DNA of 64,000 nt, taken from assembly GCA_018693855.1 (NCBI GenBank), contig JABHMO010000043.1:72154-136153 (forward strand). The letters run 5' to 3'. The notes beneath the pieces are model-generated. The model was not told where the DNA came from, ran no database searches, and worked only from the letters and a program-made list of their open reading frames with translations. This document shows, one piece after another, positions 11,321-60,869 of the stretch (its first letter is position 1; each line of letters starts with the position of its first letter). Position numbers and translations under genes: made by a program. This DNA is from Candidatus Falkowbacteria bacterium. Its GTDB lineage: Bacteria; Patescibacteriota; Patescibacteriia; UBA11705; JABHMO01.

Positions 11321-11362
11321 GTGAATCGAAGTAAATCGCAGTAAAGCGAAGTAAATCGAAGC
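11321..11362. repeat. Tandem array of 10-bp units (GTAAATCGAA-like) filling the iscU-nfu spacer
   Basis: The units are gtgaatcgaa, gtaaatcgca, gtaaagcgaa and gtaaatcgaa. The same unit family occurs at 40051-40110, 41891-41930 and 60821-60869. Confidence 0.75.
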
Positions 11363-11366
11363 TAGA

Positions 11367-11747
11367 TTATTTTTCTTTATTTTTATAATTAGTTATAGCG
11401 CTCTGTAATCCTTCTTCCGCTAGGATTGAACAGTGATATTTTACAGCGGGCACATCACCTCCTAAATGAGCGACTACATCGTCCTTTGTAATTGCTAACG
11501 CTTGATCAAAGGTTTTCCCTTTTGCAAGTTCAGTCAAAGCAGAGGAAGCTGCGATCGCAGCAGCACATCCAAGTGTTTCAAATTTAACATCTTTAATAAC
11601 TTCCTTATCTTTATCAACTTTAATATATATTTTCATGATGTCTCCACATTTAATATTTCCAACCTCACCAACTGCGTCAGCATCTTTAATAACACCTTGA
11701 TTTCGAGGTTTCTTAAAATGATCGAGTAATGTTTCACTATATTTCAT
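11367..11747 (-). CDS. iscU: Fe-S cluster assembly scaffold, IscU/NifU N-terminal domain
   Basis: It encodes 126 aa with three conserved Cys (…GNIKCGD…, LGCAAA…, …HCSILA…). Confidence 0.85.
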   Translation of the reverse strand: MKYSETLLDHFKKPRNQGVIKDADAVGEVGNIKCGDIMKIYIKVDKDKEVIKDVKFETLGCAAAIAASSALTELAKGKTFDQALAITKDDVVAHLGGDVPAVKYHCSILAEEGLQSAITNYKNKEK

Positions 11748-11829
11748 ATATGTTATGTTAAGAAATTTAATTTAAATTTAGATTCTCACTTTAATCTTTC
11801 AACTTTTTACTTTAATCTTTTCCCTATAT

Positions 11830-12213
11830 TTATAATGAGTTTAATGTTTTATTTTTTAGAACTTTTTCCAATGATTTATAGATTTCTACCCAGATACGAT
11901 GGACAGAGCAACCACCAGGTTTACAAACAGCTCCGTCAGCACATTTATACGGTTTAACATCACCTTCCAAAACGATGATAACATCAAAAAGTTTAATTTG
12001 TCCGGCTGGTTTAGCTAAATAGTATCCGCCCTTTTTACCAAGATCAGCTTTTACGATTTTGGCTTTTTTTAATGAGGCAAACATTCTTTCTAGATAAGCT
12101 AATGAAATCTTTTCTTCTTTTGCGACAGACGCCAAAGAAACCGCTTTTTTACCGGTTTTATCTAGCTGACTCAGGGCTCGCAAGCCATACTCTGTTCTAG
12201 TTGAAAATTTCAT
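11830..12213 (-). CDS. iscR: Rrf2-family transcriptional regulator (IscR-like)
   Basis: It has an N-terminal wHTH (RTEYGLRAL) and a Cys cluster (KCADGAVCKPGGCSVH), and is the first gene of the isc-like operon. Confidence 0.8.
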   Translation of the reverse strand: MKFSTRTEYGLRALSQLDKTGKKAVSLASVAKEEKISLAYLERMFASLKKAKIVKADLGKKGGYYLAKPAGQIKLFDVIIVLEGDVKPYKCADGAVCKPGGCSVHRIWVEIYKSLEKVLKNKTLNSL

Positions 12214-12242
12214 AATGCCGACTTAATTAGTAGGTTAAAGAC

Positions 12243-12271
12243 ATCATAACAATTTTGTAAAAAATTGTCAA
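12243..12271 (-). promoter_or_regulatory. Sigma70-type promoter for iscR (TTGACA-17-TATGAT on the minus strand)
   Basis: On the plus strand the -35 box is tgtcaa at 12266-12271 and the -10 box is atcata at 12243-12248, with a 17-nt spacer. It lies about 30 nt upstream of the iscR start. Confidence 0.55.
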
Positions 12272-12322
12272 TAATAAAAACAGCGCTGTTATTTACAGCC
12301 CTGTTACTTTTTATAAAAGTGA

Positions 12323-13799: not shown

Positions 13800-13886
13800 G
13801 TTGATACACGTAAATATAAATTGGTTAAACGACTTAGCAGACCTCTTATTGGTCTTCTATAGCCCTCTTTAGCCTTCTTAATAAGT

Positions 13887-14222: not shown

Positions 14223-14876
14223 TTATGGCAGTTTATCAATCATATTTGTAAATTCTGAATTAAGGGATGACCAAGGATAATTCTGCCAACTTTCAGCAAT
14301 GCCGTGTTTAGAAGGGTTTCTATGGATGTAATTAAGTTTGTTCATTAAATCAGATTTATTCCTTGCATATCTATCATGAAAAGATTTATGCCATTTGAAT
14401 TTAGGATATTCCATCAAAGAATGCTTATTTATAAAATCATTTTTAAGTCTAGATAGTCTATTCCATCTATTCATTTGTTTTTCATATTGATTAATTAAAG
14501 AAATATCAATAGAATCTTTATTATCCCGAGAATGAGAATCTTTATTATCCTGAGAATGCGAGTCTTTATTATCCCGAGAATGCGGATTCTCGGGTACTGA
14601 AAGTTGATTATGGGAGAGGATTCTATTGATATTTTGGGAAGAATTCTTTTTTATTGATTTCATGATATTTGAAATGGATTCATCATTTGATCTAATGAGC
14701 ATATGAAAATGTTCTAAATTTATAATAAATGCAAAAAGATCAAAGCCATAATAATCCTTTGATTCTTTTATCTCATCAATTAAGCATCTGCTTAAAATAG
14801 GATTCTCAAAATATTCAATATTTCGAAACGTGTTTGTCGTCGTCAAATAATATTTCCCTTTATAAAAATTCCTCAT
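14223..14876 (-). CDS. REP-associated tyrosine transposase (RAYT) / IS200-like Y1 transposase
   Basis: It has a HuH motif (LEHFHML), and a C-terminal region typical of the IS200/Transposase_17 fold (…DRYARNKSDLMNKLNYIHRNPSKHG…). REP-like palindromes sit at its 5' end and inside the ORF. The start is placed at ATG 14874-14876; the ORF-track GTG start lies within the palindrome. Confidence 0.65.
   Translation of the reverse strand: MRNFYKGKYYLTTTNTFRNIEYFENPILSRCLIDEIKESKDYYGFDLFAFIINLEHFHMLIRSNDESISNIMKSIKKNSSQNINRILSHNQLSVPENPHSRDNKDSHSQDNKDSHSRDNKDSIDISLINQYEKQMNRWNRLSRLKNDFINKHSLMEYPKFKWHKSFHDRYARNKSDLMNKLNYIHRNPSKHGIAESWQNYPWSSLNSEFTNMIDKLP
14523..14594. repeat. Three tandem 24-bp units derived from the REP palindrome, lying inside the RAYT coding sequence
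   Basis: The units are atcccgagaatgagaatctttatt, atcctgagaatgcgagtctttatt and atcccgagaatgcggattctcggg. They encode the repeat HSRDNKDS/HSQDNKDS. Confidence 0.8.
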
Positions 14877-14893
14877 ATCTTTATTAATCAGTA

Positions 14894-14915
14894 CCCGAGA
14901 ATCCGCATTCTCGGG
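14894..14915. repeat. REP-like palindrome CCCGAGAATCCGCATTCTCGGG at the 5' end of the RAYT gene
   Basis: It is a perfect 9-bp-arm palindrome of the same family as the hairpins at 1061-1080, 4293-4316 and 14573-14594. Confidence 0.8.
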
Positions 14916-14949
14916 CACTGATTTGATTTTAATTATTATTAATTATAAC

Positions 14950-19659: not shown

Positions 19660-22600
19660 CTAGAAAAAATCCTGTGTACTTTGATCAGCAGCTGACTCTG
19701 GTCGAACATAAATATAAGAGCTGTACCACTGTCCTGTAGATTCATCAGATGATCTCATAAGACACTCACCATCGTTGCCATTTAGCCCGTCACCTAACTG
19801 GTAAACTTCTACAACATTTTGATTACACCAATTCCAATTGTCAGATACTGTAACGCGTGGTTTATATCGACACCACAGATTACCTTCTCGTAATACATGA
19901 CAATTTTCATTAACAACTTCATCGTCCTCGTCAACTGAACCACAAACAGGTAAACTCTCAGGTGAAGCACAAGTATAAGAATGAGAATAGTTAAAGTAAT
20001 CATCCGTACATGATTCAAAGGTATCACCCCAATTATCATAAGTATCAGTAGAGCAAGTGGCTGGTCTTCCAGTAAAATCAATTATACCATCACAATCAGA
20101 AGTTGAAGAGCAAGAATATCCAGGGATCATCTGACCATTATCTAGACACAGTCCAAGTTTTTCATGTTCTTGCCTTTGACATCTAGGTTTATGGTTTTTC
20201 AACTTACCAGTTGGTCCAGTTGGATCACTCTTATCTCCCCAATCAATTTTGACTTTTTTAATTGGCATTGCGTTTCTATCAGCCCATGCATAGAACTTCA
20301 AACTGACATCTGCTTGCGCACCAATTATTTCAACTGGCCCAGAACTGCTAGCACCGTCACCTGAAACAACTGTAATTGTGTTTGGAATAGCAGTATTAAT
20401 ATCATTATCATTAACAGTCTCAGCTACTCCCATTACAATCGGAGAATACACTTTATCGCCTAAACCTGCAGAAGAGTTAAAACTTTTCGTTAAATTATCC
20501 CAAGGCAAAGATGAAGTTGTATCTTCTACGTATTTCCATGCATACAAACCAACATTATCTCCAGCAGAAGTGCTATCATAGCTATGATCAAATACTGAAC
20601 TAGATTGAGCAAATAATCTTTTCAACTGCCAGTCCGAAACATTAGAGCTAGATTCCTTACTGATATCAAAACACATTGTTCCGCCGGCATAAGCAGCTTT
20701 AGAACCTAAGTTTAATCCTTGATCTACCACACCTTGACACTCTTTACGATTGGATTGAAGAGAAGATTCTCTAGAATTATCCTCACCAACCGCCAAATAA
20801 TTATACATGAAGAAACTACTAGTATCTTGAAGTGAGCTTGAATCATCAGGCAGAGCACCTAGAAAGCCACAAGCTTCAGGATATTCCAATGATTCTTCAA
20901 TAGACATTAGTGAAGCTTTTTCAGCGTCTAAATTACTTCCAATTAAATTATCCATTGAACCTCCGCTGAATGTATTACAGTTCGCCAAACCAACAGAACC
21001 TGTATCGCCACCACTTCTCACTTTATAATAATGATCTGAATAAATAGGACTAGAACTTGGAATTACCACGTACTTTGAGCAAACAGGAGCATCAGCTTCA
21101 TACAGCTCAATAGATGGTGTTCCTTGTCTTGTGATTAAATGCTTTGCCGCAATCATATTTGGTTCTTGATACTCTTTTGTATGTACTTGTCTATCAGAGT
21201 TATACTCTACTTGTATCTTTGCGTAGCAGTATTTAGTACCTAGACCACTTGGTTTCTTACAAGACATCTCCTCATCACAATCAGAATCACTATTACACAG
21301 ATTATCTGAACTTAAAGAATTTGTTGCATATCTAGTTCCTGAATCATTAATACAACTTAGATATTCACAGTCATCATCTGTACTTTCACAATTAGCATCG
21401 CCAGTATACAGTGCTCCACTAAACTTAAAATCTTCTTTTCCATCTCCATCATTATCAATATCGTCATCACACTGTTTTTTAGTTGTGTAAACACAATCCT
21501 CACAAAAGATATGATCACCTGAAGATGTATCTATACTATAAGAATGAACTCCGTTCGCTGTATAGTCTCTATTCAGGGCACTGCTTGCAAAATTCGGACC
21601 ATTATCAAAATACCATGAAAGTTTTGAATTATCAGCATTAGCATCTGTCACGCCAGTATACTCAGGAATGCATTCATGATGAGTAACAATAGTATCAGCA
21701 ATCTCTCGTTTATCACCAACACCTGGAACAAACGGACCTCCTTTATACAACTTCCATGATTTTGCATCAAAAAACGTTGTCAGACCTGGACGATATCCTT
21801 CTGGACAAACTGGTCCATTATAATCAGGACCAAAAGACCCTGTCCACGGATCTTCAATCGCAGCATCTCCATTGTTTTTAGCTCCACACTGTCTGAGGAG
21901 AGCTTTTGCAATAGTTAGTGAATCAAAAGCTTTCTGATTATAACTTGTTGGATCTGATGCTAAATTAGTTGTCCCAGCAATTAAACTATTAAAATAATCT
22001 TTATACTCTGGCCAATAATCATTACTAGGAACATTCGGCATATTATAATGAAGAGCGCCTTCATAACCATCTGAATAAGAATACATTCTATAAACATCCT
22101 CAAAAGAGGCTCCATGGAAGAACTCCCACCAAGGAGTACCATTAGTCCACTTCACATACGCAGAATTCCAATCAGATTGTTTATATTGCGTGTTTGGTTT
22201 CCAGTCACCGACCTTAGTATTCATCATATTTCCTTCGTTCTGTGTAATCGTAAATGACTGATCACCATCTTTACTATAAAAATTCCGAGGTGCAGCCAAC
22301 TCATCGTCATAATCCAGACTTAAATTGGAATTTAAACCATCATAATCACCACAACTTAAACTTCCGTCAGTTCTAGCAATGTAAGTATGACGTTTTTCCC
22401 ATCGCTCTGGTTCCACACAAAATTTAGGATCATCAGTACCTGCATATTCATCATCAATATAGAAACCAGCTTCTTCATGATTATCACGCAAATTGTTCAA
22501 ACCTTGCATGTTGTTTGTTGGATACCAGATTAAACATGGATGTTCTGATGTGTCATAAAGTACAGTTGATTCATCGTATTGCAAACAATATCCACTCAAA

Positions 22601-25600
22601 CCAGTATATTTAACTTTGTTCTTGTTTGCTTTTGCACATAAACCATTGTCTCCACAATCTTTAGTAGAGCAAGACTGATCTGTATCAATTACTGGATACT
22701 CTGAATCAGTGTCAGGAATTTTTTCAGGTGTTAAATCACAGGTACACGCAACATCTAAGTTATTCATACAGAATCCTGCATCAGGTGCTGGACTATAATC
22801 TGAATAGTTTGGATAGAACCGTTCATCAGAGCCATATCGATAACTCGTATAGAAACAACCATAATCTTTGTTATCACGTCCGGCAGGATTTTCTCGATGT
22901 GCAGAACTTAATGTAATAGTATTCACATTCTCATATCCTTCAACAGTATTTTCATCTATATATGATGGAAACGGAGATTCTTTCTGCGGATAAACTCGAC
23001 AACTCACAGCTGCTGAATCAGACAACGTTTCACTACCCGTTATAGACATTAAACATCTTCCATCAATATATTTACATTTTGCATCCAAGTCATTGTTACA
23101 CAGAGCACGACACTCGCTTCTAGTTGTATACTTATAACTAACTAATCTAAAATTCTCATCTGGGTATTCACATTTTGTATCACATGGATAATCTTCTCTT
23201 TCACCACATGAGTACGGTACATTATTTGGATTTGGACAAGAATTACCCGGTTCAACATAATTACCATCATCACATTTATTCAAATTACATTCTGTGTCAG
23301 TACTACAAATAGGATTTCCAACAGTACCACCACAGAATCGCGCTACTCTACAAATATTTGTACCCGTACAGTCATTATTGTTATAACATGCAACACCGGT
23401 GGACTCACCAGTTTCTCGACTATAACAGTACTTAGTGTTAACATCGATCGCTGTGTAATAGTTAAGTGGTGCCTTATCAACAATCGCATATCCAGAATAA
23501 TCCAAATCAAACCAACCCGTGTTTCTCGTTTTATATTTATCACCCGAAGTTAATGGTTCATTATTAGATAATAAATTTCTGGCAATTGGTGTTGTTACAA
23601 AATGTGCACATTTTCCATCAGCAGCAAGTTCTGTACATAAACCAAGCTCGTCACATTCTTCAACGTACGTATTGGCACGAGAGTCCCAACTCCAATGAGT
23701 ACTCTTACAGCCATACCAAGATGAACAAACTCTATCCTTCTTAACTTTAACAATTAAATTCGAGTCATTTTGTAATAATTTTCTAGCTGTACACTTGGCA
23801 TTTGTCTCAAGCAAATCTTCACTAATAGCCGTACTTCCCCCATCAGCACAAACAAATTGATCACCACTAACACCTGGAGCTGCATCTATCTGTTTTATTT
23901 TATCTAAACATAAATCAACCATGTCATTTCCAGCGTCCTCATAGATGGCCAGACATGCCTCCATTGCTCGACAATAAGTATATTCAGGAGAGCTACAATT
24001 TGGTTCAGTAATAATTGTATCTACATTATTATCATTATATTTCAGAGGCGACTGTGGTACATTCTCCTGTCTAACTTTGAAATATGTTTGATAAGCATTT
24101 CCAAGTTCATTACTTGACTGTGAAGTATCGCTTAACATCACACAACCAATATTTCTATCAACAGCACTATTACAACTTGTTTTATCAATATTTTCGTCGT
24201 TTAGATAATAGTAAGCCTTACCTCCATAATTTTTTAATAATGAAGCACCACTACCAACCATATTCTCTCGATCTGTTGGATCTAGGAAAGCAGTACATTT
24301 ATCAGCTTTGTTTTCACAAATTCCAACATAACCATCATAATCAGCGTCATCATTTCTAACAACATGATCCGTACCGTCATAATAATAATCTTTTGTTTCA
24401 CAAGGAATATCACCTTCATAATCATCTAAATCTGATTTTCTAATAAACCAACCTTCATAAGTATTACTTGCTCCAAGTAGAGAAACTGCTGTACCTTGAC
24501 GATATTCACAAACCCTATCATACGGATTTCTAAAATAGTAATTTGAACCATCCTTGTCAGTAAACTCTTCACATCCCTCTTCCGTTTCAGAACACAGAAT
24601 ATTTGAGTTCAATAAGTTATCAGGATTTATTACATAGAACTCTTCATCATATATACCTTGACCTTCTTTTTCTTTAACCACAGTACTACTGACTGTTGGA
24701 ATTAATAATAGATTCCCCGGATTATTTGGATCTTCAATAGAAACGCTTTGATTTGAAACAACGGTTAATTCAGGTTTCCCAACCGCAGTACAACCTTTTG
24801 ACCCAGCAGGACAACGACTATCATCATTTAAAACGAGATACAACCATTCATCAGCTCCGAAATTAATATATGACTTATCAGGATCTACCGATCCTGCCTG
24901 TTCAACTGGTGATGTATTTGCTGCAATTTCAATTGATTTTGGTTGATAGTCCTGACTGTTCTTTGTATCTATAACAGCTTCACAACCAACCTTGCTTTCA
25001 TCACAAAGTGAACTAAATCCTTTTAGATAATGAGTTGCACCATCTTTATCATTATACTCACGACATCCAACCATTGCTCGAGGTAGATCTCGAGTTGTGC
25101 TGTTTAATGTTATATCATTATCACAAGTCACAGGAATATCCCATGAATCTTTTATCAAATAATTAACATCATTCTTTTGAGCAATCTTATAATTATCTAT
25201 ATAGAAAGTGTTTTCACCAATAGACATAATCTCTACAGTTAAATTTGCTGAGATATTACCCTGAACTAAGAAATTAAATGTTTTGTACTCCCAATTTGAC
25301 TGACTAACACTAACAACACCAGAATCAAACGTTTCTCCACTAGGAGTTCCATCAGTAACAATCACTCGAATATCTGACGTTGCTGAACTTGCATCAGCTT
25401 TAATCCAGAAAGACAAAGCGTAATCGCCAAAACCACTTGCGACCAAATTTGTATATTCAGGTTTCGTACTTAATGTTTGTGAAACACCTCCAAAAACCAA
25501 GATTGGACCTTGATCTCTTGATTCAACTCTAAGAATTCTTTTCTGTTCTTCCTGTGATACATAATCAAATGCAGCACTTTTCTCTTCCCAATCAGAGAAG

Positions 25601-29216: not shown

Positions 29217-30044
29217 TTATTGTTGTGCTTGAGCTTCAGCAAGAGCTCTTGAAAAGATAGATTTAAGGTCTTCATCAGAAACTTGATCCAAATCTGAATC
29301 ACTATAACCGTTCTGTCGTAACATTTCCCTTATTTGGTCTGCAGAATAGTTATATGGATCAACAACATCCGTACCAGTAGACAAATCCATATCCTGCATA
29401 GCATTAAACGCATCTGGATTTTCTTTTATTGCGGCTGTATAGAAAGCGACTAACTGTTCATCAGTAAATTGGTCAACTTGAGCTTGAGTCGCAACGCCAG
29501 ATTCTAGAATTAGAGCTCGGAGTGTATCAACAGGAGGAACAACTATTTCTTCATCGGGCACGTCCAGCAAACTGTCAGTTCCGCCCTCTCCACCATTTCC
29601 TGATCCAGAAAAACAGGTATATCCATCTGGACAGTTTGGATCTGTCCCTGCATAGATCTCTTCATAATCAGAAAGTCCATCACTATCACTATCAGCAAGA
29701 AACACGCTTGTTTCATAAACAAACTCTTCATCGTAATCATTTATTCCATCCGCGTCTGTATCTTTTTGCCGAAGAGCAATTGAATCTTCATTATCGTTTA
29801 ACAGTTCCTTAACATCAACTGCGTTATCACCTTTATTTTGAGCGACTTCAGCCAAAGGAACATTTAACAAAGCACTCATTCGAGCAAAACCAATCAAAAC
29901 TATGACAAATAAAATTATCACAAATCCAATAATAACTGTTTTGCGTCTTTTGTTATTTTTTTCTAATAGAGCCTGATCTTCTTCACTTACAACCACTTCG
30001 CCTTCGATCGGCTCTTGGTTTTCACCAGAGAATTCTTCATTCAT
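29217..30044 (-). CDS. Single-pass membrane protein with thrombospondin type-3-like Ca-binding repeats
   Basis: It has one TM helix and acidic DxDxDGxxDxxE repeats (DTDADGINDYDE, DSDSDGLSDYEE). It is paralogous to the genes at 44239-45435 and 45535-46119. Confidence 0.6.
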   Translation of the reverse strand: MNEEFSGENQEPIEGEVVVSEEDQALLEKNNKRRKTVIIGFVIILFVIVLIGFARMSALLNVPLAEVAQNKGDNAVDVKELLNDNEDSIALRQKDTDADGINDYDEEFVYETSVFLADSDSDGLSDYEEIYAGTDPNCPDGYTCFSGSGNGGEGGTDSLLDVPDEEIVVPPVDTLRALILESGVATQAQVDQFTDEQLVAFYTAAIKENPDAFNAMQDMDLSTGTDVVDPYNYSADQIREMLRQNGYSDSDLDQVSDEDLKSIFSRALAEAQAQQ

Positions 30045-30135
30045 AAGCTAAATAAAACAAAAAAATAATTTTGTTCTTTAAACAAATGATTTCACTAAAT
30101 TTATTATACCATAAATTCACTCTTCTAACTAAAAA

Positions 30136-30150
30136 AATAGTGGATAATAT
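30136..30150. promoter_or_regulatory. Candidate operator palindrome GTGGATAaTATCCAC upstream of the TSP3/giant-protein operon
   Basis: It has perfect 7-bp arms around a single central nucleotide, about 90 bp upstream of the 30044 start. Confidence 0.3.
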
Positions 30151-30249
30151 CCACATTCTTTTCCACTAAAATTAGTTAAATATTTTTCGTTTGATTAATC
30201 GCGAAAAATTGTACTTAAAACAACGTTAGTGATAAAAGTTTACTTAACG

Positions 30250-30620: not shown

Positions 30621-30640
30621 AGATTAAGAGAACAAACACA

Positions 30641-36535: not shown

Positions 36536-36551
36536 ATTTGTATATTAGTAT

Positions 36552-45435: not shown

Positions 45436-45522
45436 AGGAAAAGGGGCCAGCCCGCAATGTCTACGCATAGCGTTGCTGGCGGGGCTAAACGAGGCTATAC
45501 GAGGCTATAAAAGGCTTTCGGA
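45436..45522. repeat. Second copy of the 52-bp GC-rich core plus GAGGCTATA direct repeats, immediately upstream of the start codon
   Basis: The sequence GGGGCCAGCCCGCAATGTCTACGCATAGCGTTGCTGGCGGGGCTAAACGAGGCTATACGAGGCTATAAAAGGC is near-identical to 33140-33192. Confidence 0.75.
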
Positions 45523-46119: not shown

Positions 46120-46127
46120 ATATATTG

Positions 46128-46292
46128 ATGCTAATCTGCTAATGATATGCGAATGCCGCGAACGCTTCGCTATGCTAATTTACGAATTACACAAATAGTT
46201 AACTATTCGTAGTATTCGTGTAATTCGCAAATTAGCATCTCAGCAATTTTCGTATCATTCGCATGCTTTTCGTGGATTAGCATCGGTTTACT
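46128..46292. repeat. Copy 4 of the roughly 160-bp palindromic intergenic element
   Basis: It is near-identical to copies 1 and 2. It spans from 9 bp upstream of the TSP3 gene start to the TAA stop of the 2830-aa gene; the stop lies inside the element terminus …CATCGGTTTA, as also seen in copy 1 with nfu. Confidence 0.8.
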
Positions 46293-49200: not shown

Positions 49201-52200
49201 TTTGGTTAATTTAAGACTATCTCTATTTAGACTAATAGGATTTATCTTGCCATCAAACGTAGCGTAAATTAGAGAGTTAGTACAAACATCTGTATCATTA
49301 TCAGTTGGTTTTATATCAGTTAATGTAACCTGAGGTAATAAACACTGTTGAGTTACATAACTTAACTCTGACGAACCAGTCACTTCGACAGCTTCTTCTA
49401 CTGCTTTTGCTTCGATATCAGTGTCTCCCTCGGTAAATAAAGATAAGTAGTTAAAATTGAACAAACAAGAACCACCACTAGTGAAACAAACATTTGCAGG
49501 ATCGGCAAGTAAAGTATTAATAGCAGGATTAACAGTTGCTGTTTGATACGGTCCAACATTAGTACCAGCCGCAGTATCACATTCAGGATCTTCACTGTTT
49601 TCAATCACGCCATTTCCACAAAGTTCTTGATTAGAACCAGTTTTTAGACATTTATTATTACAACCTTCAGGCATTGTACAAACACATCCATCATCTCCAT
49701 AAGAACAAGATTGACCATCCTTCACGCAGATTGCTTCACACTCTTCATCAATTCCAGCAACACCATCTAGATCTTGCAGAATACCATTACCACAACAAGG
49801 TGTTAAAGAATATCCAGGAACAGTACAGGTACAGTTTATTGGTACTTTTTCACTACATTCTATTGAAGTGTCTTCTTGACAGTATAGTTTATTTAATGAA
49901 CCACAAGTAGGGAACCCTTGCCAGACACAAGAAGCTGTACAGTATGGGTTTAAATCTTCACCAATTTTCGTATCACACTCTTCTCCTTCGTCAACCAGAC
50001 CATTACCACAAAGTTTGTCTGCATCTTCAAGATCAGCTTCATTATTACCAACAACTAAACAACTATTACTACAAAAATCCGGTTTAGCTGCGTTATATGT
50101 ACCCGCGGTTACAGTTGCGATTCTATCCTCTACACTACTCCAGTCCCAATCATACTGATACGCATTCAGAGGCTGACCTGTTGCACTACAGCTATCAGGA
50201 ACACTAAATGGAGTTGATACATAATCAACTGTTTGACCAGCTGTCTGAGAAACAAAATCAGATGGAGCAACTTCAACTCTATCAATTAGACATTTACCGT
50301 CCCCTTCCTTTGTTCTAAATGTCCAACTAAATGAATCTAATAACACCGTTTCACCACCTTCATAATCACCAGCCAATTCACAAGATTTATCTGGACTATA
50401 ATATGTATAATTTGTTCCTCTTAATAACGCAGCAAAATCATCTGTAAGTTCTAACAGTTCATCAGTTACTAAATTTTGACATTTGAAATCAATCGCTATC
50501 AACTCTTTACATTTTGCAGCTGCAGGATCTTTTGCGTAAGATTTGAATGAGTTACTATCAGAATCAAAACAACCACAAGCAAAATCAACTTTTTCATCAC
50601 CGTCAGCATCATAACCGCCTGTTTTATCAATCTTACCATTTTCATTATCATCTTCTCTGTTAGCACAGTCACCTGAACCACTTTGAGTACTGTAATTTAG
50701 CCCTGCTAGATTCTCACCACTCACACTTGTTACGTCGTCCATAACAATTGCTCGATAACTTGTATCTGGTGATAGATCTTGAGCTAAATTAATGTCTAAT
50801 CTATTTACATAATGGCCACTACCATCATTACTATATGTATAGTTAATATTTGCAGAATTTAAATTAACAGCTGTACCATAGGTCACACACTCTGAAGTTA
50901 CACATGGATACAGTTTTAGATTTGCAGGAGCCTCAACAGAGGTCGCATTCATCTTAGTATTGAAATGTGCTTGAATTTGAGTATTAATACATGCTGAATC
51001 ACATCGCGGAAAATAATTAACTACTTTCGGATCGATAAAATCGATCAATAAACCAGCATCTTTTGTTAAATTCTTAACAACAGTTCCAGTCGTTGTTTCA
51101 ACATTAACTGCAGCTGAGGTTCTAACTGTAATTGGATTAGATTTATCAGTTTGAATATCTGCTGATACTAGTCCATTCTGAATTAAATCTGATTTTATTT
51201 GATAGATACCAAAATCTTTACGAACAGTAACATACTCGCTCGCACTAATATATTTATCTACATCAAACGTACCAACAACTGGACAGATCTCATATTGATC
51301 TCCGTAAACTCGGCATAGATGTCCAAATAACTCTACCTTTGCTCGATCACTTTCAAAAGGCAACTGCCAATTCCAATCTTCATCACCTAAATTTAATATT
51401 TCACATTGATTTAATCCGCTAACTTTATAAATTTCTTGTTCATCAACTGTTTCGATCAAACCTTGAGCAGGAGTTATAGCAATGTCTGTTGGTAAACAGT
51501 CATCTGCTTTTGTTTTAAATTTCCAACGATAGCTGTTTGGCATTGTATAAACAGGATCTGTTCCACTCGCCGTAGCACCAGCCACACCAAACTCACCACC
51601 AAGGATCTCTACTTGATACCAAGTATTTCCAACTAAAGGAGTATCTATTTCTAATCGAGAAACAGTTTCACAAGTAGTGACATCATCAACATCAGTAGTA
51701 CAGATATTATCAGACAACTTATTTGCCGCTGTTAAAGTTGCATATTCGGTCGTAATACAGTCACCATCAGAACAGCTATCTAAATCACAGTTTGGAATAG
51801 ACTCCCCCGTTGTATCAGGAGTACTACACTGTTTTGTTTTTACTTTTACAACTTGACCAGTTTCTGTTGCCTGCGCTTCAAAACTTGGCCAAGACATTAC
51901 AGTATTAAAGGTCGCTGAAATTACTGAATTTTTACAAACAGTTCTTTTATTTTTCATCGGAGCTGGTGAAGCCATTAAATTATTTTCCGCGTCACAACTT
52001 CGTTCTATCACTTTTGGATATTTTGGTAATGCACCTGTACTCACCATCCAAGAAAACTCTGTTTCGCCAAAATCAGCGTCTTCACTACAACCTTCCACTA
52101 TATCTTTACAAATACCACTTGAACAACAGGTCTCACCTGTTAAACAACTGTTATTTGTACAGCTGCCAACTCGAAATCCTACCTGATTACTTACTGCATC

Positions 52201-54780
52201 AAGAGTATCTTCGTTGGCTAAATAAATATTTCCACTAAAATCAGTTTCAGAAACTTTTGCCCCAAGAATGCTTTCCTTCTGCCAATCATATCCTTGTTCT
52301 ACAGTTAAAAACGATTCAACCTTACCTCCATTTTCAAAAACAATATCGTAAACAGAATCATTCTCAAAATTTTCACCAAACAAATTGAAAACTGTATTAA
52401 CTGGACCATTATTTGGACTTAATTGACAGATACCTGGCCCTGGTTTTTCTGAATTGATTGTAAGGTTAATTGGAGCACTTTCTAAATTAGAAGAACTATA
52501 AACTCGAATCTGGATATCTTTTGTACCAGTTTCAATTGCAACTTCTTCTGGAATCTTCACAGAGATCTCACCATCCGTCCATCCTGATTCACCACAACTT
52601 AGTTCACCAACGTAGGCTCTATCAATATCAATAAAATCAACTCGACCTGCACTATTCCCAAAGTTTACACCTTTTAATGTGATTAACTGCTGTGCTGGAG
52701 CTGGATCTGGATTTACTGAATTGATCTGTGGTAGATTCGCAGGTGCTTCAATCTTAAATTTATATGGATTACTATAAATATCTCGACAGATACAGTCATC
52801 TACCTCATCACAAGTTGAAACTTCTGTACAAGCACAAGTCTCATCACCTATATTATCAATACAATCAGGACACGAGATACATTGTTCCCCTGCCTTTAAC
52901 ACAACAGTACTATAACCATTTGCTAAATTTGGTATTTGTAAATTTGTAATTGATACATTATCCCAAGCACCACCACCTTGCATTGAAGCAATGACTTGAT
53001 CAAAATATAAATCAGAGTCACCTCTACTATTACCGAAACCACTACCTTCTACATTAACTAAACCGGAAACTGGCCCTGCCGCACAATCGGTTTCACCTGA
53101 TTGTTGACACTCTTGCTCTGAGACAGCACAGATGCCGGGCATCTGCAGATTTTCATCATAAACAAAATCATCTTGCCAACCACGATCATTCTCAGTATCA
53201 TCGTACAGTTCGTATCGATTTATGATCTTAACTGGTCCAGTTATTACACCACTATCAGGAACTCTAACGATAATCTGATCATCTCGCCAAGAAGAGTTTG
53301 TATCACAACTAAACTCACCGGTCATATAACCTTCGGAACAGTTTTCACCACTTGAACATGAGAAGTAAACAGAACTAGTATCAGTTTTATAAGACGAGAA
53401 ACCATTTCCAACAATAGTTACAAGATTACCTGGTCCACCACGTGGTAAAACAACATTATCAATCGTTGGCAGGGTCTTGCACTGTCCCTCTAGACAAACT
53501 CCGGATGCACAGTCAGAATCCTGAGTACAACCACCACTACATGACGGGCAAGCAGGATTTGTACTTGAACAATCGATCTCCCCTAGTTCATCACAACAGT
53601 CTGACGGAACAATATTGAAATTTTTCTTTTTTATTTTTGTATGGTCAGCTAGGTCAACTGCTGCTGCCACAACTTTGTGGGAACCTAGTTCATAATCAGA
53701 ACTTTCTGGCCAAGGATCTGAATAAGTATAACTTGTAGGTGAATCATTTAAGACAACCTGATAAATAGTAGAGAAATCTTCCCATGAATCAGCGTCTGCT
53801 AGATCAACTTGGAAAAGTAACATTGATAATGCAACGTCGTCACTTCCAAAGATGGAAACGTCCATAGGAACAGCTGAGCCCTGACAGATACTAGTATTAT
53901 AAGAAGGGTTTTCTATTACAACAGAAGGATCTCTTTTGTCACAAACCGAACCAGTGTTGAATTCAGAGACACAGTCACTTATACCATTACAACTCAGAGT
54001 CAATTTTTCACCATCACGATCAGTTTGTATTGACTGTAATACGTTTGGAGTAACGGTAACTTTATATGCACTATCTTTATCAAAACAGTTTTGATCTTCA
54101 CAATCACTACATACCTTATCTGGCACAAATTTTACAATTCGATTTTCATTAAATAAGTTGAACTCACCAGGAACTTCCTCAAAAGTTCCGTCCACACTTT
54201 TTTCAACCTTAACATTATTCTCTATATCTGTAGCTGAGCTACTATCAAGTGGATAGTTGAACATTAACTTAACAGGGAAAGAGTATAGTACCGTATCGCC
54301 CTCTGGGACAAGGTCTACTTCCAAAGTTCGGAAACCTGATACAACTATCGTACCGTTTCCATTCCCATCACCATCACCTGATGAATTATAATTATTTGCA
54401 TCGAGTAAACTATCAAACACAAAAGCCGTTATAGCATACGCTGACAAAATTATTGCTAGACCTATAGCAGCTGAAATTAAAATCTTTTTCGCGTTACCAA
54501 TCTTCTCTTCACTACCGCCAGCTGTCATGTAGACGAAACCACCATACAGAACTAAGCCTATTGCTAAAACACCAAGAAAACCAAGTATAACTTTCAGTAT
54601 TCTTCCAATAATCGCTTTTGGATCTTCATTTCCAAGATCAGTCTGTTCCGCGACAGTATCCAACCCGTCTTGAATATTATTCTGAGCAAAAATAGGTTGA
54701 ACAGAGAGTAATACGAAAAATAAAGCGACAACTATAAAAATAGCACCAAATAATTTTTTGTTTTTAAGTTTGTTAAGCAT
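46288..54780 (-). CDS. Giant surface protein (2830 aa) with an N-terminal VirB2/TrbC-pilin-like two-TM module and a huge Cys-rich extracellular region
   Basis: It has a signal peptide, then two TM helices separated by a short loop (…VLYGGFVYMTAGGSEEKIGNAKKILISAAIGLAIILSAYAITAF…). This is followed by IPT/TIG-like segments (…GGPGNLVTIVGNGF…), a LamG/concanavalin-like segment (…WTVSAWINPASL…), and many CxxxxC clusters. Confidence 0.7.
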   Translation of the reverse strand: MLNKLKNKKLFGAIFIVVALFFVLLSVQPIFAQNNIQDGLDTVAEQTDLGNEDPKAIIGRILKVILGFLGVLAIGLVLYGGFVYMTAGGSEEKIGNAKKILISAAIGLAIILSAYAITAFVFDSLLDANNYNSSGDGDGNGNGTIVVSGFRTLEVDLVPEGDTVLYSFPVKLMFNYPLDSSSATDIENNVKVEKSVDGTFEEVPGEFNLFNENRIVKFVPDKVCSDCEDQNCFDKDSAYKVTVTPNVLQSIQTDRDGEKLTLSCNGISDCVSEFNTGSVCDKRDPSVVIENPSYNTSICQGSAVPMDVSIFGSDDVALSMLLFQVDLADADSWEDFSTIYQVVLNDSPTSYTYSDPWPESSDYELGSHKVVAAAVDLADHTKIKKKNFNIVPSDCCDELGEIDCSSTNPACPSCSGGCTQDSDCASGVCLEGQCKTLPTIDNVVLPRGGPGNLVTIVGNGFSSYKTDTSSVYFSCSSGENCSEGYMTGEFSCDTNSSWRDDQIIVRVPDSGVITGPVKIINRYELYDDTENDRGWQDDFVYDENLQMPGICAVSEQECQQSGETDCAAGPVSGLVNVEGSGFGNSRGDSDLYFDQVIASMQGGGAWDNVSITNLQIPNLANGYSTVVLKAGEQCISCPDCIDNIGDETCACTEVSTCDEVDDCICRDIYSNPYKFKIEAPANLPQINSVNPDPAPAQQLITLKGVNFGNSAGRVDFIDIDRAYVGELSCGESGWTDGEISVKIPEEVAIETGTKDIQIRVYSSSNLESAPINLTINSEKPGPGICQLSPNNGPVNTVFNLFGENFENDSVYDIVFENGGKVESFLTVEQGYDWQKESILGAKVSETDFSGNIYLANEDTLDAVSNQVGFRVGSCTNNSCLTGETCCSSGICKDIVEGCSEDADFGETEFSWMVSTGALPKYPKVIERSCDAENNLMASPAPMKNKRTVCKNSVISATFNTVMSWPSFEAQATETGQVVKVKTKQCSTPDTTGESIPNCDLDSCSDGDCITTEYATLTAANKLSDNICTTDVDDVTTCETVSRLEIDTPLVGNTWYQVEILGGEFGVAGATASGTDPVYTMPNSYRWKFKTKADDCLPTDIAITPAQGLIETVDEQEIYKVSGLNQCEILNLGDEDWNWQLPFESDRAKVELFGHLCRVYGDQYEICPVVGTFDVDKYISASEYVTVRKDFGIYQIKSDLIQNGLVSADIQTDKSNPITVRTSAAVNVETTTGTVVKNLTKDAGLLIDFIDPKVVNYFPRCDSACINTQIQAHFNTKMNATSVEAPANLKLYPCVTSECVTYGTAVNLNSANINYTYSNDGSGHYVNRLDINLAQDLSPDTSYRAIVMDDVTSVSGENLAGLNYSTQSGSGDCANREDDNENGKIDKTGGYDADGDEKVDFACGCFDSDSNSFKSYAKDPAAAKCKELIAIDFKCQNLVTDELLELTDDFAALLRGTNYTYYSPDKSCELAGDYEGGETVLLDSFSWTFRTKEGDGKCLIDRVEVAPSDFVSQTAGQTVDYVSTPFSVPDSCSATGQPLNAYQYDWDWSSVEDRIATVTAGTYNAAKPDFCSNSCLVVGNNEADLEDADKLCGNGLVDEGEECDTKIGEDLNPYCTASCVWQGFPTCGSLNKLYCQEDTSIECSEKVPINCTCTVPGYSLTPCCGNGILQDLDGVAGIDEECEAICVKDGQSCSYGDDGCVCTMPEGCNNKCLKTGSNQELCGNGVIENSEDPECDTAAGTNVGPYQTATVNPAINTLLADPANVCFTSGGSCLFNFNYLSLFTEGDTDIEAKAVEEAVEVTGSSELSYVTQQCLLPQVTLTDIKPTDNDTDVCTNSLIYATFDGKINPISLNRDSLKLTKEIPANETCPVDLPVVISHYGFDEGSGQSTYDSILNNQAEVVAGVFVDGQVGQALEFDGQDSVVKTSTSSFGQAKPWTVSAWINPASLAAEPKTIFTASADGSNESIGLAVFKGNILLLKTGEKGDPRINNFSGMRIPENVWSHIMISYDGLGNIFVNIDGQGKSKSTFSLVTKVALDDLSIGNRMENPQLDWAGFDGAIDEFTVFEQLLLKDEMTQYYQSITGDGVAVNSLNYKFTKNPVKAVKQSIYNGYQKVKLTVRDLLVKSGWAAAPKRCDVGFNFSVTENSFGNTEVLVVPHYLLGENTKYNLEFNSIENVCGKASSIGTSFTTGDEICRVNNVYINPADRFVTKPNVNAEYQAIAQNYDQPIQSIPNVYSWKWAWNSLDTSIANVGSYVDTEDPSKVNVASFNKNGQTAIEAKTIITDDTVSDSSTGGASVSGYSNLEVFICSKLWAPTDYSGDFSMYGTDSGYLTHLYHKIYNVGLFYCRDLGQPLVKSCYNGQACYDDADCAGIGDQLCRAPLVCSDGVTSCSSDTDCSEIGNGKCLMAGEHDDLPKLKVLSTDIFSDFVEAGQKTPANPDQVIKQCQDGIDNDLNGLSDLEDPKCNDANDNWEEPALLAQYFLSRTDVALDDNFDESEDVISLRIYENPEALAPELWYMKYAPNAGNISSLDIDCLESSTGKFCYQGGKEDNSVYIAAGNISTTGTLYNNIYLLGYNSGANSNTQNIFSQMIETIKFNINNLSEGTTGTTAKQSVMKDIRRVQDINLVHLLLDGYRSQNSNKVPQLESGTYVRGETFSVWPSWQRVFGSMLGGALPVDPDNHFVWEQATTNPTPQGEICQDLSAGSVELYCQGQKQCVVPGQWCSICPSAASDGDHDYDKYTCYSSDVTGANLPEFYSTVYSIISDNPVYHYQALGPNAYNIDFTLDGYAAGYNTEKQGFRFYNEFRVLPKRKTATGDICISGGDCDYIYK

Positions 54781-57780: not shown

Positions 57781-57856
57781 ATTATTAGAGGGCTAGAGAG
57801 GGCTACAGAAGGCTTTATCTATACTGAGTCACTCCGGCAAAAGCCGGAGTCTGACC
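57781..57856. repeat. GGCTA-motif direct repeats plus the ACTCCGGC…GCCGGAGT hairpin in the rpsU leader
   Basis: It reads GAGGGCTAGAGAGGGCTACAGAAGGCTTT followed by GAGTCACTCCGGCAAAAGCCGGAGTCTGACC. It is the same family as the element at 33120-33284. Confidence 0.7.
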
Positions 57857-57895: not shown

Positions 57896-59230
57896 TTATT
57901 TTTTCTTCTTATAAATTTCTTTTAATCTTTTTTTAACTTCAGGAACAACGTTACTTAGACTGATGACTTCTTGGATACCGCTATCTTCTTCTCTGACAAT
58001 GATAGTGCCTTCGGTTACTTCCTTTTGACCTAGAATCAGAATGATTTTTGCTTTACATTTTCGAGCTAGATCCAACTGTGATTTCAGTGCTCCTTTTGAA
58101 AAATTAGCTTTGACTGAAAAATTCTCTGCTCGCAAAGCTTCAAAGAAAGTAAATGCTTTCTGTCTGGCCTGTTCACTCAATTGAGCAACAAACACATCCG
58201 GACCCTTTTTTGCTGGTAATTCAACTTGTTGATGTCGGATTTCAGAGACTAAACGTTCTATTCCAAAACTAAATCCTGACATTGGAGTACTTTCTCCACC
58301 TAGCATTTCAATTAAATTATCACAACGACCACCACCTGCTAAAACAATAGTTTCTCTTCCTTCCTGAGGAGGTGTTGTTATTTCAAAAATAGTTTTCGTA
58401 TAGTAATCAAATGTTCTTGAAAGAGTTGGGTCAAGAGTGTATTCAACTTTCACTTCATCTAGATACTCTAAAACCTTAAATAAATGGTTACGACAGTCAT
58501 CACACAAGAAATCAACTGTTTGCGGAGCATCTTCAAATGCTTTTACACAACGTTGACTGTTACATTGAAAAACTTTCAATGGATCTTTTGTAATCAACTT
58601 TCTTAGATCAGCAGGGATAGCAGCTCGTTTTGATTTCAAGTACTCTGCTAAAACTTTTTTATATTCTGGTCGACATAACGTACAACCGACACTATTTAAT
58701 TTTACTTGTCCATTTATTCCTAAATTTTTCATCAAGAAATGTGCCATGATAACAAGTTCACCATCAATTGCCGCTGACTCGTCTCCAACAATTTCGAAAT
58801 CAACTTGAGAGAACTGTCTCAGTTTATTTGTTTCTATTTTACCTTGACGGAACATTGATCCCCAAGTATAAACTTTTAACGGCATCTGAGAAGCGCTCAT
58901 GTTGTGATCGATAAAAGCTCGAGCAATAGAAGCAGACGCTTCTGGTCTCAAACAAAGTTTTTCACCTCGATCAGTAAAAACAAAAGCCTCTTTTTCTAAA
59001 ACATTATTCTGCCTAAATAAAGAATGATTAAAAAGTTCAAACTTTTCCAAAAGTGGAGTTTCCATACGATGATAACTGTAATCAGAGATCAATCGTCTAA
59101 CCTGATTCTCAACAAAATTCCAATGCTTCGCATCATTTGGCAAAACATCTTTCATACCCTTAACAACGGGTGGAGTTTTAATTGTCTTTATAGGTTCTCT
59201 TGGTTGTTCTTCTTTTTTTCTTCTAGGCAT
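57896..59230 (-). CDS. hisS: Histidine--tRNA ligase
   Basis: It has class II aaRS motifs, a HisRS-specific N terminus (…GMKDVLP…), and a C-terminal anticodon-binding domain. Confidence 0.9.
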   Translation of the reverse strand: MPRRKKEEQPREPIKTIKTPPVVKGMKDVLPNDAKHWNFVENQVRRLISDYSYHRMETPLLEKFELFNHSLFRQNNVLEKEAFVFTDRGEKLCLRPEASASIARAFIDHNMSASQMPLKVYTWGSMFRQGKIETNKLRQFSQVDFEIVGDESAAIDGELVIMAHFLMKNLGINGQVKLNSVGCTLCRPEYKKVLAEYLKSKRAAIPADLRKLITKDPLKVFQCNSQRCVKAFEDAPQTVDFLCDDCRNHLFKVLEYLDEVKVEYTLDPTLSRTFDYYTKTIFEITTPPQEGRETIVLAGGGRCDNLIEMLGGESTPMSGFSFGIERLVSEIRHQQVELPAKKGPDVFVAQLSEQARQKAFTFFEALRAENFSVKANFSKGALKSQLDLARKCKAKIILILGQKEVTEGTIIVREEDSGIQEVISLSNVVPEVKKRLKEIYKKKK

Positions 59231-59272
59231 AGAATCGCAAGGGGGCTATAGGGGGCGAAGGAGGCTATAGAA
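59231..59272. repeat. GGCTATA-motif leader element abutting the hisS start codon
   Basis: The sequence AGAATCGCAAGGGGGCTATAGGGGGCGAAGGAGGCTATAG shares a 25-nt near-identical leader with the capA-like gene at 33120-33140. Confidence 0.75.
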
Positions 59273-59359
59273 AACTACTTTTGAAAAAGCAAAATCCTAT
59301 TTATTTAGTCTCCTCACCGCACAGCCAATTTGTATATTTGTATTTAAGCTCTAATAAAT

Positions 59360-59941
59360 CTAGTATTCGATATTATCAAAAAAAGTTAATCTCCAGACAG
59401 GCCAACCTCGGAACCAGACTTTTCCGACGATTAGATCTCGATCAACTGGACCAAAACTTCGAGAATCAAGACTGTACTCTCGATTATCACCCAAAACATA
59501 GTATTCATCAGCGCCAAGTGTCCACGTAGTAGTACCTCTGGTTCTAGCACCGTCTTCTAAATAGATTGCTTCATCAAGAATCATTTTCTTATCATCACTA
59601 TGCACGTAAACCATGTTATCTTTTATTTCAACTTTTTCACCCGGTAGTCCGATTATTCTTTTAATGAAATACTGTGATGGATCTTTTGGATATTTGAAAA
59701 CGATAATATCACCTCGGACAGGATCACCAAATCTATAACCAATTTCATTAATGATCAAATACTCATGATCATAAAAACTTGGCTCCATTGAAGCACCTTT
59801 TACATAAAAGGGCTGTATTAAAAAATATCTAACTGGAATAATGATAGCTAATGAAACAGCTACAACCTTGACTAAATCCCAAACAAATTGCAGAGTTTTC
59901 TGCATTGGGCTTAATTCTTCAAAATACTCTCTTTCACTCAT
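59360..59941 (-). CDS. lepB: Signal peptidase I
   Basis: It has the S26 catalytic regions (…KGASMEPSF…, …GDNREYSLDSRSFGPV…). The start was moved to ATG 59939-59941; upstream of it lies a GGCTATA-type motif at 59950-59978. Confidence 0.85.
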   Translation of the reverse strand: MSEREYFEELSPMQKTLQFVWDLVKVVAVSLAIIIPVRYFLIQPFYVKGASMEPSFYDHEYLIINEIGYRFGDPVRGDIIVFKYPKDPSQYFIKRIIGLPGEKVEIKDNMVYVHSDDKKMILDEAIYLEDGARTRGTTTWTLGADEYYVLGDNREYSLDSRSFGPVDRDLIVGKVWFRGWPVWRLTFFDNIEY

Positions 59942-60136
59942 AAAACAAAGAAGGCTATACAGGGCTAAAGAAGGCTTAAAAATAAACAAAATTAAGACCT
60001 TTTTCACTCTCTTAGGTGTTAAGTTGCCATTATTATAACAAATTTTCAAACTTAATGCAAGTTTATCAAATAGAATGTTTTGTTAATAAATTTACAAAAA
60101 GAAAAAGACGACGCAAGACGCCGTCACTAGCAATGT

Positions 60137-60664
60137 TTAGCCAAAATCACGATCACGTTCATCTAATCTTTTTTTCCGAAAAGAGGTGTGCATCAGACTA
60201 CTACCACTTGGCCACTTTTCAGGTGTTCTTTCAAGCTCATAGTTTAGCTCCAGATACCTAACAGACCGTGGAACTCCAGCGATAATTCGTCTAAAATACA
60301 GCGCCAATTCAGAACCTGCAATCAACTTGAACCCAACACTTGTCATAGAACCATACAACTTTGTTCGGAAAAAGTACCGTGCAAGAAATGTTTCTTCATA
60401 CAAACTGCCAAAAAAGGCAAGCCTCAATTCCTTCACATCCTCCATCCATGACGTCCATTCATGAGGATTACTAAGGAAAAAGAGATAATCAGGATCACTC
60501 TTCTGTACAAGTTTTTTATATCTCAATAAAAGGTCATATCCTCTTTTCTTTTCGCTTTCAGGGAGTTTTTCCCACAGACGAACGAGATCCATCAAGCTGA
60601 GATCCAACCTAAACCGTAAACGTAAATTTTGCAACATTTCTTGAGCAGTTTTTGGTTCTGACAT
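60137..60664 (-). CDS. Hypothetical protein (175 aa)
   Basis: It has host-like composition and is basic. No recognisable motif was seen. Confidence 0.4.
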   Translation of the reverse strand: MSEPKTAQEMLQNLRLRFRLDLSLMDLVRLWEKLPESEKKRGYDLLLRYKKLVQKSDPDYLFFLSNPHEWTSWMEDVKELRLAFFGSLYEETFLARYFFRTKLYGSMTSVGFKLIAGSELALYFRRIIAGVPRSVRYLELNYELERTPEKWPSGSSLMHTSFRKKRLDERDRDFG

Positions 60665-60820
60665 CGATCACCCTCCCGTGATGAATGTGACGAGACAAAC
60701 AACTACTAATTATAGAGAAAATCACGATTTTGTCAAGCTTGTTAATTAATTAACTTTAGGGTATAATATCTACACGAAGAACACATAATCTTTATTAGAT
60801 TTTATTTTAAAATTAATACT

Positions 60821-60869
60821 TACTTCGATTCACTCCGCTTTACATCGATTTACCTCGATTCACCTCCCT
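60821..60869. repeat. Tandem array of 10-bp units (TACYTCGATT-like) abutting the start codon of the LCP gene
   Basis: The units are tacttcgatt, cactccgctt, tacatcgatt, tacctcgatt and cacctcccta, followed directly by the ATG. Confidence 0.7.

Follow-up and report, generated by a model that had tools for sequence, protein, structure and literature searches.

Polar tandem-repeat arrays at gene boundaries in a Candidatus Falkowbacteria genome: possible arms of intervening-sequence-like elements

Candidatus Falkowbacteria belong to the Parcubacteria group of the Patescibacteria, or candidate phyla radiation (CPR), a large share of bacterial diversity in which gene expression is almost unknown. In a 64-kb stretch of one such genome, here called the window, whose FtsZ is 100% identical to an NCBI entry under the name Candidatus Falkowbacteria bacterium, four intergenic arrays of a 10-nt tandem unit stand beside nfu, nrdD, ftsA and an LCP gene, and they raise the question whether such arrays are operators of a regulator, recognition sites in the messenger RNA (mRNA), products of local slippage or parts of a dispersed repeat element. 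Since the arrays lie within predicted transcripts and directly against start and stop codons, in a genome which rarely uses ribosome-binding sites, we tentatively regard them as arms of a repeat element rather than as promoters or regulator sites. More precisely, they may represent mostly solo arms of an intervening-sequence-like inverted-repeat family, which would act, if at all, at the RNA level, a reading to which we assign a probability of about 0.45.

The arrays and their place in transcripts

The unit in sense orientation is TCGATTTACY. A forward array, (TCGATTYACY)n, is termed F arm and a reverse one, (RGTAAATCGA)n, R arm; as four-copy arrays the unit forms are written (UCGAUUUACU)4 and (AGUAAAUCGA)4. 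All four arrays (S1 to S4) are imperfect and intergenic, and repeat yCGaTTyACy with a period of strictly 10 bp:

11320-11361 (-): S1, solo F arm of four units, TCGATTTACT TCGCTTTACT GCGATTTACT TCGATTCACT
40044-40103 (-): S2, F arm with four good units at 40054-40093 and degenerate flanking units
41822-41831 (+): lone unit CCGATTTACT in the ftsA-ftsZ spacer, oriented as S3
41887-41930 (+): S3, R arm in the sense of ftsA and ftsZ, three good units and one partial unit
60820-60869 (+): S4, solo F arm in the LCP 5' leader, four units (60825-60864) and a partial unit

These positions agree to within a few bases with an earlier sequence-only reading of this DNA, which had also correctly given the unit, the 10-bp period, the intergenic location and the names of the neighbouring genes (Pfam: IscU, Nfu, IscS, NrdD, FtsZ, FtsA and LCP). 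Its statement on orientation was right as well: with respect to the gene that follows, S3 is opposite and the other three arrays read CGATTTAC. S1 occupies the 52-nt iscU-nfu spacer, 5 nt past the iscU stop and 6 nt (ATAATT) from the nfu ATG (11311-11313), and the TCCCT tail of S4 abuts the LCP ATG at 60870 without a Shine-Dalgarno (SD) sequence. S3 starts 2 nt past the ftsA stop (41933-41935), the ftsZ ATG being 369 nt away. S2, which is complementary to S3, is situated 143 nt past the ftsZ stop and about 220 nt ahead of the nrdD ATG, with a DnaA box and the nrdD leader following closely downstream. This box (TTATCCACA, 40027-40035, minus strand) is perfect and 8 nt away from the degenerate S2 end; the leader comprises about 170 nt with a T-run (39834-40020), and a terminator-like hairpin was seen between ftsZ and S2. 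Two open reading frames (ORFs) of 29 aa and 21 aa overlapping S2 were treated as spurious.

Allowing one mismatch at most, 24 unit matches were counted in the window against 9.1 +/- 3.1 in shuffles, twelve of them inside the four arrays and the other twelve singletons at chance level, and arrays of at least three in-register units occurred in none of 100 Markov simulations. A random spread of units, which the sequence-only reading had considered, was not observed, as units are not distributed through coding DNA. In the profile obtained from 99 units (yCGaTTyACy) positions 2, 3, 5, 6, 8 and 9 are near-invariant and positions 1, 4, 7 and 10 variable, resulting in a 3-nt rhythm (CG.TT.AC). Read from the sequence, the forward unit contains neither an ATG, GTG or TTG start nor a stop codon in any frame. 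Rfam gave no match at gathering score in the window or in 18 related loci, and a tRNA search found none.

Three promoter sequences place two of the arrays within predicted transcripts:

60739-60767 (+): LCP promoter TTGTTA-17-TATAAT, sigma-70-type, 52 nt upstream of S4, kept in the sister species B
60709-60736 (-): promoter of the divergent gene, 12/12, back-to-back with the LCP promoter, conserved in species B
12243-12271 (-): Rrf2 (iscR-like) promoter TTGACA-17-TATGAT, the sole strong promoter of the Rrf2-iscU-nfu-iscS cluster

Because S4 starts 52 nt downstream of its promoter, it should belong to the 5' leader, at about +46 to +95 of the predicted LCP transcript, and because the sole strong promoter of the isc cluster is found upstream of Rrf2, S1 should be intra-operonic, as are the arrays of two further loci, L152 (atpG-atpD) and L153. 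No promoter of at least 10/12 was detected at any of the 14 start-proximal or forward arrays checked besides S4, the search covering the array itself, the 220 nt ahead of it and the 40 nt behind it; a weak plus-strand site before S3 (9/12) was at chance level and was discarded. Judged by these promoter positions, the arrays are shown to be predicted transcribed parts of mRNAs, either 5' leaders or intercistronic spacers, and not promoters. The suggestion that they replace ordinary promoter sequence could consequently not be upheld, S4 being located 52 nt past a promoter, S1 inside an operon and the other checked arrays in promoter-free surroundings.

Dispersal, polarity and turnover

With a two-unit pattern, the GTDB species-representative genomes yielded 98 matches, approximately the chance expectation, and no related genome was recovered; the matches inspected were mostly coding (rpoB, ruvB), apart from two short repeat arrays of an unrelated kind. 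A scan of viral contigs resulted in only two unrelated perfect repeats. JGI metagenomes searched with a three-unit pattern presented more than 117 stretches, mostly unrelated perfect minisatellites, and about 20 low-GC contigs with the same imperfect unit, many of them from sample Ga0233431, the home of the sister species. The census therefore consists of the window's four arrays and about 19 further low-GC loci, in 24 rows of which 23 are distinct.

Twelve of the 23 distinct arrays are forward and end 0-10 nt ahead of a same-strand ATG, none of them with an SD sequence; the genes downstream include murI, an RseP-like protease gene, atpD, DHFR, efp, a beta-CASP RNase gene, LCP, nfu and others. 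Six arrays are reverse and begin at most 5 nt past the stop of ftsA, cvpA, an epimerase gene, tig, dnaG or rpsR, and at tig and dnaG the TAA stop itself belongs to the first unit of the array. In both classes it is the array 3' end ('...TTTACY') that faces the ORF: it lies at most 10 nt from an ORF boundary in 18/23 distinct arrays (19/24 rows), as compared to 3/21 for the 5' end (Fisher P = 2e-5). This outward-end rule, together with the gene orientation, holds in 18 of the approximately 23 distinct loci. A functional theme was not found among the flanking genes. The arrays are best understood as one lineage-specific dispersed repeat family (family 1), and their position, fixed with respect to start and stop codons and not to promoters, argues for a role at the RNA level or a structural one.

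Identical arrays stand on independently assembled metagenome contigs that encode the same proteins, in nine cases for S1, in three for S4 and in five further ones for S2 and S3, where the sole mismatch in the 2675 nt compared falls outside the arrays. Copy number does not vary between assemblies, the arrays are not assembly artefacts, a possibility which the sequence-only reading had raised, and the polymorphic copy number of phase-variable contingency repeats was absent in the 3-9 other assemblies available per site. In species B, the LCP protein of which is 84% identical in amino acids to that of the window species (A), four-fold degenerate sites are near saturation (0.37-0.71 identical). 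S4 nevertheless has the same length there, with 45/50 identical positions within a 205-bp spacer that is 91% identical, and S1 has the same four units (36/42). The differences between A and B exchange recurrent unit variants, which suggests exchange among arrays. Species B has no S2 and carries an inserted Bro-N gene at this place, with the DnaA box and nrdD leader kept; for ftsA-ftsZ, the coverage of species B is limited to the spacer part away from the ftsA stop. The more distant relatives C, D and E do not possess family 1 and show other short repeats in these spacers, for instance TTYACTA heptamers upstream of LCP. Of the arrays of a second family, described below, the one before rpmA is kept in species A, B and C; in species B, other repeats or plain AT-rich sequence stand in place of those of hisS, rpsU and the S26 peptidase gene. 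From this comparison the arrays are constrained where present, yet they turn over by replacement.

Two observations concern the same gene borders. Directly after the ftsZ stop, species B carries about 140 nt of (CACGTAA)n (Tandem Repeats Finder consensus, 20 copies; L234 1479-1620), and the window counterpart (40205-40245) consists of TACGAAC-type repeats, so that stop-proximal arrays, too, turn over between species. The last 85 nt or so of iscU (window 11370-11455 versus L236 9413-9496) are 100% identical in A and B, third positions included, in a gene whose four-fold sites overall are just 53% identical; an RNA element overlapping the gene or a local recombination could be the reason.

Inverted arms, PF05635 genes and the weighing of explanations

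PF05635 ('23S rRNA IVS protein', IVS standing for intervening sequence) is a family which resembles Avd and was named after 23S rRNA intervening sequences (PMC10053308). The fetched Falkowbacteria loci contain five PF05635 genes, every one of which stands between inverted arms of short tandem units, and no two share a unit family:

L176 4823-5472: family 1, arms of 44 nt, 82% complementary, in the order S18 stop, R arm, PF05635 gene, F arm, efp ATG
L236 2856-3530: family 2, arms of 28 nt, 96% complementary
L228 3505-4025 and 11425-12275: two PF05635 genes, one with (CACGTAA)n arms of 31 nt, 97% complementary, the other with (GTTAATCAT)n
L118 2060-2722: PF05635 gene with a fifth unit family

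The R arm follows the upstream stop, and where the downstream ATG is visible (L176, L228 3571-3921, L118), the F arm directly precedes it; in L176 the '...TTTACY-3'' arm ends point outward. Complementary ends enclosing a PF05635 ORF were hence seen for family 1 and four other families; in the window, S3 and S2 form an inverted pair around ftsZ instead (38 nt, 84% complementary, 1801 nt apart), and S1 and S4 are solo. Besides, four window spacers (46127-46284, 10927-11036, 35924-36074 and 7168-7253) are as a whole hairpins of tandem-unit arms with their outer ends at ORFs.

A complete element would accordingly read upstream stop, R arm, cargo, F arm and downstream ATG, with '...TTTACY-3'' ends facing outward. 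Such a layout is unchanged on flipping, so that by geometry F arms would precede starts, R arms would follow stops and the outer end would touch the ORF. In the window, S3 and S2 would be a pair around ftsZ, and S1 and S4 solo F arms. The stems of rRNA intervening sequences are cut by RNase III. Paired arms are expected to form a long RNA stem in the manner of the ends of 23S rRNA intervening sequences, and such an arm stem would be a likely RNase III substrate, the cleavage of which would separate cistrons. A solo F arm, being G-poor and devoid of start and stop codons, would stay single-stranded and provide an SD-less leader at the position of the ribosome-binding site; a complete element that lost its cargo and one of its arms could have left a solo arm behind, or single arms could have been copied. 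F arms indeed contain only 8-16% G, and predicted leader folding is weak (-4.5 to -13 kcal/mol over 70 nt).

Several points weigh against this reading. Only two of the approximately 23 family-1 arrays are in cis pairs, and only one pair has PF05635 cargo; most are solo, and some partners may lie off the short contigs. The window itself holds no PF05635 gene in its 64 kb. Two independent arms may flank ftsZ by coincidence, in which case the gene would be no 'cargo'; the terminator-like hairpin also lies between ftsZ and S2. We know of no mobility mechanism for such elements, and arms of tandem units differ from classical terminal inverted repeats. Compared to shuffles of the same composition, the leaders show no deficit of structure (z about -1), so that their low structure is due to G-poverty and is no special property. 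Finally, LCP and nfu leaders of C, D and E show neither an array nor an SD sequence, which means that the array is not needed for SD-less initiation.

Alternatively, forward arrays could be mRNA sites which replace the SD sequence and are read by a post-transcriptional regulator or the ribosome, for example by a short bS1, a cold-shock protein or a lineage-specific factor. We consider this rather unlikely, if worth keeping in mind. An SD core at -4 to -18 was present in only 5/46 window genes (11%), with upstream regions of 11.5% G, and the twelve distinct sense arrays end 0-10 nt before an ATG without SD; in Parcubacteria the anti-SD motif was detected in only 48%, and CPR bS1 has just 3-4 S1 domains (PMC9297842). 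Six near-invariant and four variable unit positions in a 3-nt rhythm are what a recognised motif might look like, S1, S4 and the family-2 array of rpmA are kept across species with saturated synonymous sites, and a precedent exists in the TAACTGA repeats (PMC4679880) treated below. However, the six reverse arrays after stops represent a different RNA sequence, S2 lies about 220 nt from the ATG and upstream of the nrdD promoter region, several unrelated unit families share the position so that no single factor would read all of them, orthologues in relatives have neither array nor SD nor a substitute, and the downstream genes have no common functional theme. Unit junctions (GATTCACCTC) resembling the 16S rRNA 3' end were found to be rare unit variants only, and this candidate was dropped.

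At the level of transcription, the sequence-only reading had proposed binding-site arrays of a regulator, that is operators at which a protein cooperatively binds helically phased repeats and controls transcription, e.g., by a roadblock. An OmpR/PhoB/CpxR-type winged-helix protein or a ribbon-helix-helix repressor of the MetJ, omega or ParR kind would be conceivable. Such operators and plasmid iterons consist of direct repeats with a period of 7-11 bp, in 2-10 copies that are bound cooperatively. The exact 10-bp period, the 8-bp conserved core and the 3-8 copies fit this picture, as does GTAAA-N5-GTAAA within the unit array, which equals the consensus of the E. coli CpxR box; both orientations also occur in omega or MetJ operators, and the array sequence is conserved between species A and B. 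A binding-protein gene co-varying with the arrays, which had likewise been suggested, has a candidate counterpart in the PF05635 genes, each of which stands between arrays of a unit family of its own, the pattern expected of an autoregulated binder; these proteins are candidates only. Yet the position of the arrays is fixed against start and stop codons and not against promoters, whereas known helically phased operators occur at promoters or origins. Neither S1, S4 nor any other array checked overlaps or adjoins a promoter, no -10 element follows the arrays, and S1 and the arrays of L152 and L153 are inside operons. There is no regulator gene among the annotated window genes, and the arrays lie in leaders and spacers beside unrelated housekeeping genes without a regulon-like theme. 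Operators are thus improbable in our opinion.

Slightly more improbable still are functionless minisatellites, born of local replication slippage and tolerated because G-poor, codon-free repeats do no harm in SD-poor spacers. Short-period arrays are indeed concentrated in the 10% non-coding DNA of the window (17/19, P = 1e-15), unit families are numerous and replace one another from species to species at orthologous spacers, and unrelated perfect 10-bp minisatellites with similar units exist in many other organisms. Independent birth, though, does not explain one imperfect family at about 23 loci, nor does slippage account for the strong polarity toward ORF boundaries, the inverted pairing around cargo genes, or a copy number that is constant among assemblies and unchanged in a species whose synonymous sites are saturated. 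Most improbable are contingency repeats and iterons of a replication origin, the latter also mentioned in the sequence-only reading: direct tandem repeats and the perfect DnaA box beside S2 speak for them, but the units measure 10 bp and not 17-22 bp, they are dispersed over about 23 loci beside unrelated housekeeping genes, neither rep nor dnaA nor an AT-rich unwinding element is found near them, species B keeps the DnaA box without the array, and copy number is invariant in all assemblies. TCGA methylation sites, DNA-uptake sequences and A-tract curvature were discarded, because other unit families at the same positions do not have those features.

Comparison with known repeats places the arrays near, and not within, described systems. 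The closest precedent is the TAACTGA heptamer, found as direct repeats in marine Beggiatoaceae and some Cyanobacteria and Bacteroidetes (MacGregor, 2015; PMC4679880). Here as there, the sets consist of 2-6 copies of a single short unit and are scattered over many intergenic loci, mostly forward and a few nt before start codons without SD, a minority facing stops, and the downstream genes share no theme; an RNA-level role was proposed for TAACTGA, with its function unproven (PMC4679880). In contrast, the present unit has 10 nt (yCGaTTyACy) and not 7 nt, which makes it an analogue and not a member, its host belongs to the Patescibacteria/CPR, about a quarter of the arrays are reverse and start at a stop, and inverted pairs around cargo genes have not been reported for TAACTGA. 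The family is therefore distinct in unit length, phylum, a sizeable reverse stop-proximal class and inverted arms around PF05635 cargo, the last of which links it to intervening-sequence-like elements. Like 23S rRNA intervening sequences with a PF05635 ORF, the elements of the related loci hold a PF05635 gene between complementary ends able to form a long stem; unlike them, they lie between protein-coding genes, their arms are tandem 7-10-nt units, and most copies are solo and cargo-free.

Repetitive extragenic palindromes (REP) and the bacterial interspersed mosaic elements (BIME) of enterobacteria, as well as elements resembling miniature inverted-repeat transposable elements, are similarly dispersed, strictly extragenic, transcribed within operons, able to form hairpins when paired and grouped in families within a genome. 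Family-1 arms differ in having no internal palindrome beyond TCGA and in being tandem direct repeats, mostly unpaired; no copy forms its own hairpin, and pairing is limited to a distant inverted partner. The short tandemly repeated repetitive (STRR) sequences of cyanobacteria likewise comprise several families dispersed in the non-coding DNA of one lineage, with units of 7 nt, and to our knowledge neither start/stop-codon polarity nor inverted pairing around cargo genes has been described for them. We found no publication linking Falkowbacteria with tandem repeats.

Arms with a role in RNA processing or in recruiting ribosomes would give a concrete, testable handle on SD-independent expression in CPR bacteria and suggest a first function for the widespread PF05635 family; as selfish sequences, the arms would add a new type of small element, mobile or expanding, that shapes many leaders in a minimal genome. 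A more far-reaching idea is that each PF05635 paralogue recognises its own unit family and that its arms, scattered over the start and stop borders of dozens of housekeeping genes, form an RNA-RNA and RNA-protein network for processing and SD-independent translation. S3 RNA and the leaders with S1, S2 and S4 are predicted to pair in trans at -43 to -48 kcal/mol, compared to -18 for shuffles, a result which also counts in favour of the arm reading; the ftsA 3' region may pair with the nfu and LCP leaders, or a family-specific protein may bind. Such a network is a long shot; if true, it would amount to an undescribed layer of post-transcriptional control derived from intervening-sequence-like elements in a reduced CPR bacterium.

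Further repeat families and neighbouring features

Family 1 is one of several. About one third of the intergenic spacers in this Falkowbacteria lineage are made of short tandem units, in many cases as inverted arms with their outer ends at the neighbouring start and stop codons, and in the window, which is 90% coding, 17/19 tandem arrays with a period of 6-13 are non-coding (P = 1e-15) and nine end at most 15 nt from a start codon. Family 2 has the 10-nt unit TAGCCYTCTN and stands immediately upstream of rpmA, PGA_cap, TSP3-repeat, rpsU, hisS and S26 peptidase genes; rpsU with its family-2 array has an SD sequence, and two copies share the tail CCTTGCGATTCT-ATG. Its sites are:

13854-13879 (+): family 2
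33120-33199 (-): family 2
40130-40150: family 2
45483-45516 (-): family 2
57787-57814 (-): family 2
59240-59270 (-): family 2
59947-59976 (-): family 2

Family 3 comprises hairpins of about 110-160 nt with arms of 9-nt ATTCGCA-type units, which fill co-directional spacers; the distance from the hairpin end to the following ATG is 3-9 nt, and the genes concerned are iscS, one for an HtrA-like protease, one with TSP3 repeats and an ORF of 90 aa:

10927-11036: family 3
35924-36074: family 3
36410-36551: family 3
46127-46284: family 3

TTAAC-type units are present upstream of ftsZ. The mraY-murD spacer (7168-7253) is a hairpin of TTACAAAT units, with arms of 40 nt, 80% complementary, and a 6-nt loop. 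Within coding sequence, the murI gene of a relative (L117, approximately 430-560) contains in-frame 9-nt (GTTAATCAR) and 7-nt (CAACCAAT-type) tandem repeats, which resemble the intergenic GTTAATCAT family.

REP-like palindromes (CCGAGAATG...CATTCTCGG) were observed at 1055-1103, 4271-4323 and 14573-14600 / 14888-14915. A gene for a Y1 (IS200-like) transposase at 14223-14918 (-) has a perfect 28-nt inverted pair in or around it and a 24-bp tandem repeat at 14512-14584. Gene and palindromes, whose sequence is different from the family-1 arms, may constitute a system of the type formed by REP and REP-associated tyrosine transposases. At 30045-30640, about 600 bp do not contain a convincing ORF and include small palindromes (GTCATCCCGACC...GGAGGGATC, GTCATTCCTGCGTAGGCAGGAATCC); parts match two fetched loci, L183 (75% over 210 nt) and L137, and with permissive settings Rfam, searched over 30000-30680, produced nothing but an FtrB match below threshold. 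Two giant ORFs are located on the minus strand, one of 3176 aa at 19660-29190 and one of 2830 aa at 46288-54780, the latter with the Pfam domains T4SS_pilin and Laminin_G_3.

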